The notes beneath the pieces are model-generated. The model searched no databases and was not told the origin of the DNA. It saw only the letters and a list, made by a program, of their open reading frames with translations. A DNA stretch of 47,034 bases, taken from positions 1 to 47,034 of the forward strand of contig JBKEAL010000230.1 in NCBI GenBank assembly GCA_047972195.1, read 5' to 3'. This DNA is from Parachlamydiaceae bacterium (lineage in GTDB: Bacteria; Chlamydiota; Chlamydiia; Chlamydiales; Parachlamydiaceae). The first letter of the stretch is position 1. Every line of letters begins with the position of its first letter. The translations under genes and the position numbers were made by a program. Of this stretch, positions 7,464-9,704 are shown one piece after another.

Positions 7464-9704
7464 ATGACTAAAATTAATTCGGCCTATCAATTTTTAATTC
7501 ATCCACTTCATAAACAGGAAGACAGAACCCACGACCGAGCCAAAAGAGTTCTCTCTCTGGTTGCCTCCATAGCAGCCGGTGTTTTCTCCCTTGGCAGCGC
7601 CCACATCATCGTTTACGCTCTCCATAGACACGAAATTAAAAAGCTCAATCCTGATGATAGAGCCCCTTCTGAGGAATCCGAACATTCAGCCACTTCAAAC
7701 GAAGACTCCAACTCAGAAAGCGGAACCTCCAGCGGCAGCTCCTCCTCCTCTTCATCTCAATCTTCATATCAACCCTCTTCGCAATCCTCATCCAAGTCCT
7801 CCTCCAAAAGCAGCAGTTCCTCCTCATCCTCCTCCTCTGACAACCCGGATGACTTAATATTTGCTCAAAGACTCCAAGAAGCAGAAAACCGTAGAAAGCA
7901 AGCTGAAGAAGCCACTGCTCGCAGAGAAGAAGAAAATCGCAAAATGCAAGCCGATCCAGACGCAGACTTGGCCGCAGCTATTGCCCAAAGTCTCAGAGAG
8001 GCTGAAGCAGCGCAAGATGCCGACTTGCCCGACTTGACTCGCAGACCACAGGAACAAGATGAGCCGATAGTTCCGGATGCTGGTGTAGGACAGGCCGATC
8101 GAGACGCAGACTTAGACGCGGCAATGGCTCTAAGTCTGGGTCAAGCCGAAGAAGCACAAGATGCCGACTTGGCAGCAGCAGTAGCCCAAAGCGTCCAACC
8201 CGTAATTCCTAATCCTATGGATGATGATCTGTTCAACATCTATACAACCATCGAGTCAAAGCTTTCCCCAGAAGAGCTCATGACTATATCTGAAGAACTA
8301 TTAAAAACCGCCAATAATTTTGAAGACATCAAGGAAGGCATGCGGCATTTAGCTGCGGCAGCCAACAAAGATCATCTCGTAGCCCAGGTTCAAGTAGCCT
8401 CTATATTTAAATTTGGCTCTATGCCCGGAATTCCCAAAGACATGAAACTCAGCAGACACTATTTTCAGTTGGCGGCAGAAAGAAACAATGCGGTCGCTCA
8501 ATTAGAATACGCTGATCTCCTCGAAAATGGCCTCGGTGGTCCGAAGCTATTAGGAGAAGCAAAACATTGGTATGAGCGATCTGCACAACAAAACCATCTT
8601 CCAAGCCTCTTTTGCCTTGGCTGCTATATTGCAGAACATGAACATGATACAGCAGGTGCGATTCCTTATTATGAACGAGCAGCCAGTCAAGGTTTCCTTC
8701 CTGCGCTGATTGCACTTGGAGTGATTTACTATAAAGAAAACAACATGGATAGAGCCGAAGAGCTGTTCTTAAATGCTCTAATTAAAGCAGATGTCCCAGC
8801 ACCCAGCTTTAAACTCGCTGATGGAAAATTCGACTTTCAAAAGATGAAAGAGCATTATCAACATCCTAAAGAAAGGGAAGAAGGACTTGCAGAAGCTCTG
8901 CGCTTTAATGCCCTGGTAGAATCCTACGCACCCATAGCTCACTTTTATTTGGGCAAGATCTACGAAGAGGCTGAAGGGAAAATCGATATTCAGAAAGCTG
9001 TTGAACACTACGAGAAGGCAGGAAAATATACAGACGCAAAAGAAAGGTTGAATGCCTTGGTTGAAGTCAATTCCCCTACAACACCGGCAAAACCTCGAAA
9101 AACTTCCTTCTACCAAGACGCACTCATCGAATCTGAAGAAGAGCTGAAAAGATACACAACAGATGCAGATAATGGCGATAGAGAAGCGCAAAACGCCTTG
9201 AGCGTTTACTGGGAAGATAAGGATCCAGAGCTTGCTCAGAAATACCTCGAACTTGCCGCTAAACAATACTTTCCAGAAGCGCAGTTGAGACTAGCCCTAA
9301 AAGCTAAAGAGGCAGGAGAAGTAGAAACTGCGCTCCGTTACTTGCATTTAGCTGCAGAACAGGAATTTGCACCGGCATATTTTGAATTAGGCGATTTATA
9401 TGAAACTGTGAAGCCGGAAGAAGCAAGGCAATGGTTTGAAAAGGGCGCTGAAAGAAAAGAGCCTAAAGCCTGTGAACGAGTTGCCGATTCATGCAAAGAA
9501 ACGGAGCCAAAACGAGCATTTCAACTCTATCTAATAGCTGCTGGAAAAGGCTTGGATTCAGCTAACATTCAGCTCGTTAATTGCTATAGAGACGGTATTG
9601 GCACCGAAAAGAATATTCCAAGAGCGATCAAACTCATGGAATCACTTGTTCTAAAACACCCTATGCTTCAAAGAGTTCTCGACGATCTGCGAAGCCAACT
9701 CTAA
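7464..9704 (+). CDS. Hydrophobic-anchor / poly-Ser / triple-UIM / Sel1-repeat protein
   Basis: 746 aa. It has an N-terminal hydrophobic stretch (VLSLVASIAAGVFSLGSAHIIVYAL) and a Ser-rich tract. Three copies of DADLxAAxAxS fit the UIM core (hydrophobic-xx-A-xxx-S with acidic flanks). Multiple Sel1/SLR repeats follow (A..LG..Y..G.G...A..WYE.AA.QG). Confidence 0.85.
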   Translation: MTKINSAYQFLIHPLHKQEDRTHDRAKRVLSLVASIAAGVFSLGSAHIIVYALHRHEIKKLNPDDRAPSEESEHSATSNEDSNSESGTSSGSSSSSSSQSSYQPSSQSSSKSSSKSSSSSSSSSSDNPDDLIFAQRLQEAENRRKQAEEATARREEENRKMQADPDADLAAAIAQSLREAEAAQDADLPDLTRRPQEQDEPIVPDAGVGQADRDADLDAAMALSLGQAEEAQDADLAAAVAQSVQPVIPNPMDDDLFNIYTTIESKLSPEELMTISEELLKTANNFEDIKEGMRHLAAAANKDHLVAQVQVASIFKFGSMPGIPKDMKLSRHYFQLAAERNNAVAQLEYADLLENGLGGPKLLGEAKHWYERSAQQNHLPSLFCLGCYIAEHEHDTAGAIPYYERAASQGFLPALIALGVIYYKENNMDRAEELFLNALIKADVPAPSFKLADGKFDFQKMKEHYQHPKEREEGLAEALRFNALVESYAPIAHFYLGKIYEEAEGKIDIQKAVEHYEKAGKYTDAKERLNALVEVNSPTTPAKPRKTSFYQDALIESEEELKRYTTDADNGDREAQNALSVYWEDKDPELAQKYLELAAKQYFPEAQLRLALKAKEAGEVETALRYLHLAAEQEFAPAYFELGDLYETVKPEEARQWFEKGAERKEPKACERVADSCKETEPKRAFQLYLIAAGKGLDSANIQLVNCYRDGIGTEKNIPRAIKLMESLVLKHPMLQRVLDDLRSQL

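Follow-up and report, generated by a model that had tools for sequence, protein, structure and literature searches.

Intracellular bacteria are known to write ubiquitin by means of ligase mimics and to erase it by means of deubiquitinases, and how chlamydiae protect their inclusion against ubiquitylation by the host is a well-established topic. Dedicated bacterial ubiquitin readers built from canonical motifs are, to our knowledge, essentially undescribed. Ubiquitin-interacting motifs (UIMs) are weak binders as single sites and gain affinity in tandem, as in Vps27/Hrs, S5a, RAP80 and ataxin-3. Here we describe a gene from Parachlamydiaceae bacterium (GenBank assembly GCA_047972195.1, contig JBKEAL010000230.1; the whole analyzed stretch of 47,034 nt is called the window in the following) whose product combines three motifs of the UIM class with an N-terminal hydrophobic anchor and a C-terminal Sel1 solenoid.

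The Parachlamydiaceae possess expanded families of ubiquitin-directed effectors, in which the ubiquitin-directed part is paired with repeat domains (PMC4209131), and Sel1-type proteins are enriched in amoeba-associated bacteria (PMC7542358). Precedents for the non-covalent binding of host ubiquitin by bacterial effectors are PtpA of Mycobacterium tuberculosis, which has a single 'UIM-like' region (PMC4664646), and Orientia OtDUB, which carries a non-UIM ubiquitin-binding domain (PMC7214410). UIMs are not mentioned in the Parachlamydiaceae survey (PMC4209131), in the Simkania ligase paper or in a review of Legionella mimicry. In the literature searched we found neither a bacterial tandem-UIM protein nor a combination of Sel1 repeats with UIMs, which is weak evidence of absence because the coverage was partial. 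The initial annotation of this locus, which was made from the DNA letters alone, could not name a described bacterial protein with anchor, multiple UIMs and Sel1 repeats either, and the literature searched agrees with it.

Support for three motifs of the UIM class

The open reading frame (ORF) 7464..9704 (+) encodes 746 aa, and the segment 7842-8198 corresponds to residues 127-245 in its frame. For this segment the initial annotation had proposed three tandem UIMs and a degenerate fourth copy. All four peptides were found in the translation: DDLIFAQRLQEAE at residues 129-141, DADLAAAIAQSLREAE at 166-181, DADLDAAMALSLGQAEE at 214-230 and DADLAAAVAQSVQ at 233-245. The repeat that had been noticed at the nucleotide level was recovered as well, with gacgcagacttgg at position 7959, gacgcagacttag at 8103 and a third copy, gatgccgacttgg, at 8160. 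The published UIM consensus is x-Ac-Ac-Ac-x-hydrophobic-x-x-Ala-hydrophobic-x-x-Ser-x-x-Ac-x (Ac, acidic residue), in which Ala and Ser are described as 'strictly conserved' (PMC8273247). UIM1 fits this consensus completely (L169, A172, I173, S176 and E179). The core of UIM2 consists of L217, A220, M221 and S224, with Q227 at the acidic position followed by E229/E230, and that of UIM3 of L236, A239, V240 and S243, with P246 at the acidic position. Ahead of the hydrophobic residue, the acidic residues of the copies alternate as D-x-D-x-D.

The Pfam gathering cut-off is 21 bits for both UIM (PF02809) and UIM_2 (PF23625). When residues 127-245 were scanned as an isolated fragment, UIM_2 reached 26.2 bits in three stretches, which is above the cut-off, and UIM reached 20.7 bits, which is just below it. 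We further searched 177,635 distinct PDB sequences with a profile that was based only on the five chlamydial copies (three from the window and two from its ortholog, see below). The seven best matches were all eukaryotic UIM chains: the tandem UIMs of ataxin-3 (2KLZ, E = 0.0023), Vps27 (1O06 and 1Q0V), USP28 (two entries) and USP25 (two entries). The profile of the reversed sequences retrieved none of the UIM chains and one unrelated match, so the forward result is not an effect of composition. Compared directly with UIM-1 of yeast Vps27 (1Q0V/1O06), UIM1 is identical at 12 of 16 residues, every consensus position included (DADLAAAIAQSLREAEAA versus DPDLKAAIQESLREAEEA).

We also counted the core pattern [DE]-hydrophobic-x-x-A-x-x-x-S, which occurs three times in residues 128-250. 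None of 200,000 composition-preserving shuffles of the segment reached three cores (mean 0.028, maximum 2), so composition alone does not yield the pattern. The count overstates the independence of the motifs, since the copies arose by duplication. Among ~466,000 residues translated from the ORFs of 81 chlamydial loci and of the window, at least two independent cores were observed only in this ORF and its ortholog, and no other multi-UIM ORF was found in 101 chlamydial or Sel1 loci. With the UIM_2 score of the fragment and the eukaryotic UIM chains at the top of the PDB search, the initial description of the three copies as UIM-type holds at the level of profiles, and their membership in the UIM class is supported by sequence.

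Two direct copies of 81 nt underlie the array (Table 1). Each of them encodes one UIM, the spacer AE(A/E)AQ and the DADL start of the next UIM. Over the 27 codons of the two copies we calculated 0.88 synonymous (dS) and 0.13 non-synonymous substitutions per site (dN; dN/dS ~0.15). Because dS is high while dN is only 0.13, the duplication is old, with both copies kept at the protein level by purifying selection. Judged by its place at the end of the first copy, the truncated stretch DADLPDLT is a decayed remnant of the second UIM of the first duplicated unit. This stretch and the decayed second MIU-like motif (Table 1) had escaped the initial annotation. In the AlphaFold2 (AF2) model, which was calculated from a two-sequence alignment (predicted template modeling score 0.38) and used for secondary structure only, UIM2 and UIM3 are merged into one helix at residues 213-243 with a low predicted local distance difference test (pLDDT) score.

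A single ortholog with a different motif number

Among ~5.8 billion proteins only one true ortholog was found, P0002 (470 aa, JGI metagenome 3300062792); the other matches were generic Sel1 proteins. P0002 is syntenic and lies at the same place downstream of lysS on its contig L001. The two organisms are very close, as their LysS proteins are 97% identical (dN 0.02, dS 0.99), while the UIM protein is only 55% identical. Against the ortholog, dN/dS (omega) is between 0.05 and 0.47 across all segments. The first 63 residues are the most similar part (60/63 identical, omega 0.05), compared to 26/59 identical positions in the Ser linker (residues 64-127, omega 0.29), 50/84 in the motif region (residues 128-250, omega 0.24) and 132/190 in block A of the Sel1 solenoid (residues 251-440, omega 0.26). 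For the first 63 codons (7464..7652 compared with 1844..2032 of L001) dS is 0.46 and thus about half of the lysS value, which may indicate recent recombination or a constraint on the nucleotide sequence itself.

The motif inventory differs between the two proteins: the window protein has one motif that resembles an inverted UIM, the motif interacting with ubiquitin (MIU), and three UIMs, and P0002 has two MIU-like motifs and two UIMs. Asp, Ala, Ala and Ser are invariant in all five UIM copies of the two orthologs. The initial annotation had stated that orthologs lacking the Ala and Ser of the core would point to a generic acidic, Ala-rich helix, and in these two organisms both residues are kept throughout. 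UIM2 shares 12 of 17 residues with its ortholog, Ala and Ser of the core included, and UIM3 keeps Leu, Ala and Ser while 7 of 14 positions are changed. The spacing from Ser to Ser in the tandem pair UIM2-UIM3 is 19 residues in both proteins.

Further searches revealed no additional member of this family. A scan of the genome collection with the two-sequence alignment gave no relative, and in the metagenome scan we obtained 20 loci, all of them generic Sel1 proteins at 23-36% identity; neither these nor four further Sel1-type proteins contain at least two UIM cores or a match to the MIU pattern. No true relative was detected in an exhaustive phmmer search with residues 127-250 against 1.84 billion representatives, and tblastn against plasmids gave no match. 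The exact sequence of the window protein had no entry in public assemblies. Searches with the N-terminal 67 residues and with a profile of a two-UIM unit gave no match at all, the cluster of the query included, which reflects the word index of the search and does not speak for absence. One extra phmmer match, P0007 (6510 aa, 14 weak stretches), was rejected as a repeat-summed artefact, as it is a giant tandem-repeat protein without a UIM core. Since no homology beyond the motifs was found in the phmmer search, the motifs were not imported as part of a recognizable, recently transferred eukaryotic gene.

An MIU-like motif upstream of the UIMs

The fourth copy of the initial annotation, a degenerate UIM, is present as the peptide DDLIFAQRLQEAE and lacks the UIM Ser. 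It fits better to the MIU of Rabex-5, at the level of the pattern only. We tested the pattern D-hydrophobic-x-L-A-x-x-L-Q-x-x-E on one helix, and the copy matches it. The Rabex-5 sequence was confirmed in PDB entry 2C7M_A as QEDWELAERLQREEEE. The window copy, both ortholog copies and residues 54-65 of 2C7M_A have D(-4), a hydrophobic residue (-1), A(0), L(+3), Q(+4) and E(+7) in common; in this way DDLIFAQRLQEAE of the window and DDLKLAQKLQEQE and DEDLARRLQDEE of the ortholog share the pattern positions with EDWELAERLQREEE of Rabex-5. Canonical MIUs have a 'highly conserved' Leu-Gln pair (PMC5824887). In the window a second, decayed MIU-like motif aligns as ATARR--EEEN, with this pair deleted compared to the ortholog. 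An AF2 helix at residues 129-161 (pLDDT 75-82) spans the window MIU-like motif. The ortholog fragment weakly touches the Pfam family CCDC50_N (E = 1.1).

Architecture of the protein

The protein is composed, from the N- to the C-terminus, of a polar leader, a hydrophobic anchor, a Ser-rich linker, the motif segment and a Sel1 solenoid (Table 1). This order of anchor, poly-Ser, UIMs and Sel1 had been given in the initial annotation and is borne out by residue composition and by the Pfam Sel1 matches. The start codon is supported, since the identity to P0002 begins exactly at this ATG. Ser makes up 49% of residues 55-127, and the motif segment (residues 128-250) is rich in Ala, Asp, Glu and Gln, with 23% Ala and 24% Asp+Glu. 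AF2 predicts disorder in the Ser linker and in residues 184-212. Directly after UIM3 we observed the sequence DDLFNIYTTIESKL (residues 254-267, 8223..8264), which differs from the ortholog at one position only (N258 to His). As a side observation, it holds a Y-T-T-I element that is loosely similar to the core of an LC3-interacting motif and may equally be the helix that caps the start of the Sel1 domain.

Table 1. Features of the UIM gene and its surroundings (window positions)
Feature	Position	Strand	Remarks
Promoter-like site TTGTAA-17-TATAAT	7409..7437	+	27 nt before start codon; consensus match only, 10/12
Gene for anchor/Ser-linker/MIU-like/UIM array/Sel1 protein	7464..9704	+	746 aa
N-terminal module, residues 1-63: leader 1-28 (motif AYQFLIHP) and anchor	7464..7652	+	Conserved in ortholog
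Single hydrophobic anchor, residues 29-53	7548-7622	+	Kyte-Doolittle peak 1.96 over 19 residues
Ser-rich flexible linker, residues 64-125	7653..7838	+	AF2: no secondary structure, pLDDT ~30
MIU-like/inverted-UIM-like motif DNPDDLIFAQRLQEAEN, residues 126-142	7839..7889	+	Rabex-5 pattern match
Decayed second MIU-like motif AEEATARREEEN, residues 147-158	7902..7937	+	Aligned to intact DEDLARRLQDEEN of ortholog
Internal duplication behind the array	7947..8171	+	81-nt direct copies 7947-8027 and 8091-8171, 79% identical, 144 nt apart
UIM1 DPDADLAAAIAQSLREA, residues 164-180	7953..8003	+	Pfam UIM 18.8, UIM_2 16.0 bits (23-residue peptide); AF2 helix 166-183
Truncated UIM start DADLPDLT, residues 185-192	8016..8039	+	At end of 81-nt copy 7947-8027
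UIM2 DRDADLDAAMALSLGQA, residues 212-228	8097..8147	+	UIM_2 16.3 bits as peptide; whole-protein UIM_2 best stretch 212-226
UIM3 QDADLAAAVAQSVQP, residues 232-246	8157..8201	+	Weakest copy; UIM_2 13.3 bits as peptide
Sel1 solenoid block A, residues 269-442	8268..8789	+	Pfam Sel1; AF2 pLDDT ~65-86
Sel1 solenoid block B, residues 558-745	9135..9698	+	Not in ortholog; homologous to C-terminus of neighbouring gene
Terminator-like hairpin after stop codon	9721..9744	+	10-bp stem, 6 G-C pairs; T-run weak
ParD antitoxin/ParE toxin pair	9808..10307	+	PF09386 28.6 bits, PF05016 43.8 bits; between two Sel1 genes
Paralogous neighbour: hydrophobic anchor, Ser-rich linker, Sel1, no UIM	10376..11455	+	359 aa; Pfam, sequence comparison
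OTU-like cysteine protease ORF, domain residues 556-651	30178..32223	-	681 aa; PF02338 36.1 bits, cut-off 23.3; no NCBIfam match

Inclusion-membrane (Inc) proteins have a bilobed hydrophobic domain of ~40-60 residues, in which two transmembrane helices are joined by a short loop. The initial annotation had implied an inclusion-membrane location, which is not backed by the hydrophobicity of the protein: we observed one peak of ~25 residues and no bilobed domain, and the Inc class was rejected for this reason. AF2 places a short break at residues 39-42 of the anchor, and each half has only ~10 hydrophobic residues. For type III secretion and a place in the inclusion membrane, the strong conservation of the first 63 residues is the single, indirect sign. 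A hydrophobic stretch that starts at residue 29, after a conserved polar leader, is also atypical for a Sec signal. As a separate observation, the ORF directly after lysS in a more distant chlamydial metagenome-assembled genome (MAG; LysS 66% identical; L030, 7617..8360 (+)) starts with MRVIEDPYQFFFHPF followed by a hydrophobic helix. This start resembles MTKINSAYQFLIHPL and the anchor of the window protein, although weakly (tblastn E = 0.032 in a small database), and the remainder of the ORF is unrelated and without a Pfam domain. From their sequences, the L030 ORF and the UIM protein may share an N-terminal targeting/anchor module with swapped C-terminal domains.

The C-terminal ~500 residues match Pfam Sel1 (PF08238) with 90.1 bits (cut-off 30.7) in six stretches. 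Sequence relatives of this part in the PDB are EsiB (4BWR, 1.3e-22), LpnE (6DEH), LceB (8SXQ) and SEL1L, and the top matches of Foldseek are Sel1 proteins as well. In NCBIfam no family matched the UIM protein, with far sub-threshold similarities only, to ExoR and MotX, which are periplasmic Sel1 proteins, and PADLOC assigned it to no defence system. The last ~200 residues (9090..9701) align over their full length with the C-terminal domain of the ORF 10376..11455 at 38% identity (E = 2e-31); the ortholog of this ORF directly follows P0002 on L001. P0002 itself stops at the equivalent of residue ~548, where block B begins. This distribution of block B suggests, at the sequence level, either a gene fusion in the lineage of the window or a deletion in the other lineage. 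We also noted that the Sel1 solenoid is interrupted by 45 residues that the ortholog lacks, PAPSFKLADGKFDFQKMKEHYQHPKEREEGLAEALRFNALVESY (residues 444-488, 8793..8927); AF2 confidence is mostly low there.

Genomic context

By its LysS, the source organism is an environmental, Parachlamydiaceae-like chlamydia. One uncultured MAG has a LysS with 84% identity, and the other 79 lysS loci compared, which are mostly from Parachlamydiaceae, Waddliaceae and other Chlamydiota MAGs, are at ~62-70%. Neither the UIM gene nor its neighbour is present at this locus in the closest GTDB genome or in the 79 other chlamydial lysS loci. The neighbourhood otherwise consists of housekeeping genes (priA, a gene for a MiaB-type enzyme, lysS and a PhoH-PIN gene). 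Between 8200 and 11000, a region that covers the Sel1 part, the toxin-antitoxin pair and the paralog, the GC content is 0.35-0.44, compared to ~0.49-0.51 in the flanking lysS and phoH-like genes, which is consistent with an accessory island. On L001 the two Sel1 genes are adjacent, without a ParD/ParE pair between them. The ORF 30178..32223, ~20 kb from the UIM gene in the same genome, is by its OTU-like domain a candidate deubiquitinase effector.

Discussion

We lean towards the view that the protein serves an environmental Parachlamydiaceae-like chlamydia as a membrane-tethered ubiquitin receptor directed at the host. Its parts are of different certainty: from the motifs we infer that the UIM array binds ubiquitin, whereas secretion, topology, identity of the membrane and the role as decoy or adaptor are speculative. 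In such a receptor the N-terminal module, with its polar leader and a helix of ~25 residues, would export the protein and anchor it in a membrane facing the host cytosol, most likely that of the pathogen vacuole, and the Ser-rich tether of ~60 residues would let the motif segment reach away from the membrane. The three UIM helices and the one MIU-like helix would each bind the Ile44 patch of one ubiquitin, so that polyubiquitin or host proteins with several ubiquitins would be bound avidly through the sum of these low-affinity sites. As UIMs gain affinity in tandem, this avid binding is the most likely activity that we predict. With a second partner bound by the C-terminal Sel1 solenoid, the protein would be an adaptor or a decoy. 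In this role it could hide the ubiquitin that coats the vacuole from the autophagy receptors of the host, or it could capture ubiquitinated cargo or vesicles in the manner of ESCRT-0 and epsin-type receptors. A host-directed role is the best reading because of the chlamydial lifestyle, the OTU-type protease in the same window and the effector-like evolution of the gene, that is, a lineage-specific locus with low GC, 55% identity between close relatives and differing motif number.

Several observations weigh against a ubiquitin receptor. The full-length protein scores below the Pfam cut-off (UIM_2 17.6, UIM 8.3 bits), single copies reach 13-19 bits and the ortholog fragment only 9.7 bits for UIM_2, so that the Pfam scan proposed in the initial annotation favours UIM_2 for the isolated fragment and not for the whole protein or for the weak copies of the ortholog. 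UIM3 and the second UIM of the ortholog end in Pro and have no acidic residue at the C-terminal end, and AF2 confidence over the UIMs is low (pLDDT ~40-50). The three core positions of UIM3 would escape seven random changes among 14 sites with a chance of ~0.10, and since only two sequences are available, the conservation is consistent with constraint and not a proof of it. For the MIU-like copies, PDB profile searches (forward and reversed, E <= 10) retrieved no Rabex-5, RNF168 or UIM chain, and phmmer with the peptides against the PDB gave no MIU or UIM chain either; the best PDB match of the profile is a segment of the myosin coiled-coil rod. The MIU assignment therefore stays a lead at the level of the pattern. 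With regard to the membrane, the anchor is a single stretch of ~25 residues rather than an Inc-type bilobed domain, its flanks carry similar charges (~+2 and ~+1) that favour neither orientation, and periplasmic Sel1 proteins likewise have an N-terminal signal-anchor ahead of their Sel1 repeats.

The last of these points leads to an envelope protein, in which a Sec signal-anchor would hold a periplasmic remainder, as in ExoR, MotX, EnhC and Hcp-type Sel1 proteins, and the acidic and Ala-rich helical part would serve as a spacer, fit the short UIM pattern by accident and never meet ubiquitin. The single N-terminal hydrophobic stretch, the NCBIfam similarities, which point to periplasmic Sel1 proteins only, and the full-length Pfam scores under the cut-off all fit this explanation. 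A segment with such Ala and acidic contents favours UIM-like patterns, one duplication accounts for the copies, and the upstream 'LAQRLQEAE' occurs also in a myosin coiled coil. However, an accident of composition is difficult to reconcile with the failure of 200,000 shuffles to give the pattern, with a profile that finds UIM chains in the PDB in the forward and not in the reversed direction, and with duplicates kept at a dN/dS of ~0.15. Between very close relatives the core residues are fixed while the surrounding linker has been rebuilt, the position of the hydrophobic stretch behind a highly conserved polar leader is atypical for a Sec signal, and the gene is accessory, lineage-specific and fast-evolving. 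We consider an envelope protein unlikely for these reasons. Functional UIMs could also bind a ubiquitin-like protein instead of ubiquitin; the most plausible one is ATG8/LC3 of the host, via its UIM-docking site, and the protein would then manipulate autophagy directly. Autophagy is a main host defence against vacuolar bacteria, and the evidence from Pfam and from the PDB profile applies equally to such a target. According to Marshall et al. 2019, as cited in PMC8273247, there is a dedicated interface by which UIMs bind the ubiquitin-like proteins of autophagy. The closest sequence matches, however, are classical ubiquitin binders (Vps27 UIM-1, ataxin-3 UIM1/2 and USP25/28), although the sequence does not separate the two targets, and we regard an ATG8-directed function as rather improbable. 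It is very improbable, finally, that the gene is decaying or functionless and that the repeat region is low-complexity sequence drifting by slippage. One MIU-like and one UIM copy are visibly decayed, the orthologs differ by large indels and by the 200-residue C-terminal block, and only two sequences exist among the proteins searched; yet the ORF of 746 aa is intact and accompanied by a promoter-like site and a terminator-like hairpin, omega is well below 1 in every segment, the orthologs hardly differ in their first 63 residues and dN is far below dS between the duplicated units.

As a bolder and tentative version of the ubiquitin receptor, the protein might be the first bacterial ubiquitin 'reader' made of canonical motifs: a vacuole-tethered UIM and MIU array that captures polyubiquitin on or near the vacuole and acts as an autophagy decoy or as an ESCRT-0 mimic that diverts cargo, with the remodelling by duplication and loss between close strains suggesting tuning to the host or to the chain type. 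If a tethered multi-UIM chlamydial protein is indeed a ubiquitin receptor, it would add a third class, the readers, to the bacterial writers and erasers, in a compact module of ~125 residues. The two very close relatives with different motif numbers would be a natural experiment that bears on how number and spacing of the motifs set chain preference. A location on the vacuole would bear on the escape of chlamydiae from ubiquitin-dependent autophagy, a defence older than animals. The sequence further shows that a bacterial gene can fix and amplify short linear motifs of eukaryotic type with no transfer of a whole eukaryotic domain.

Compared with known systems, the array resembles the eukaryotic multi-UIM receptors (Vps27/Hrs, STAM, epsin/Eps15, Rpn10/S5a, ataxin-3, RAP80 and USP25/28) in its single-helix motifs, their tandem arrangement and the flexible regions around them. 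The Ser-to-Ser distance of 19 residues is close to that in ataxin-3 (~20), and in RAP80 it is ~25. It differs from these receptors in that it is bacterial and lies between an N-terminal membrane anchor and a Sel1 solenoid. Since Pfam detected no VHS, FYVE, ENTH, VWA, Josephin or USP domain in the protein, it stands outside the eukaryotic UIM receptor families, ESCRT-0 and epsin included. The difference from MIU proteins such as Rabex-5, RNF168, CCDC50 and ZUFSP is that the window copies match them by pattern and not by profile. With bacterial Sel1 proteins, namely the Legionella effectors LpnE and LceB and EsiB of E. coli, it shares a bona fide C-terminal Sel1 solenoid; among the Sel1 relatives compared, however, the UIM array and the MIU-like motif are present only in the window protein and its ortholog. 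The ubiquitin-binding elements of PtpA and OtDUB are single, non-canonical and part of enzymes, whereas here canonical UIMs occur in tandem without a catalytic domain. Closest in lineage are the ubiquitin-directed effectors of chlamydiae (the F-box, BTB, RING/U-box and OTU proteins of the Parachlamydiaceae, ChlaDUB and the Inc protein GarD/CT135), which come from the same phylum, likewise place a eukaryote-type ubiquitin element on a repeat scaffold and are also lineage-specific and fast-evolving (PMC4209131). While these effectors write or erase ubiquitin or shield the membrane from it, the window protein would read it.

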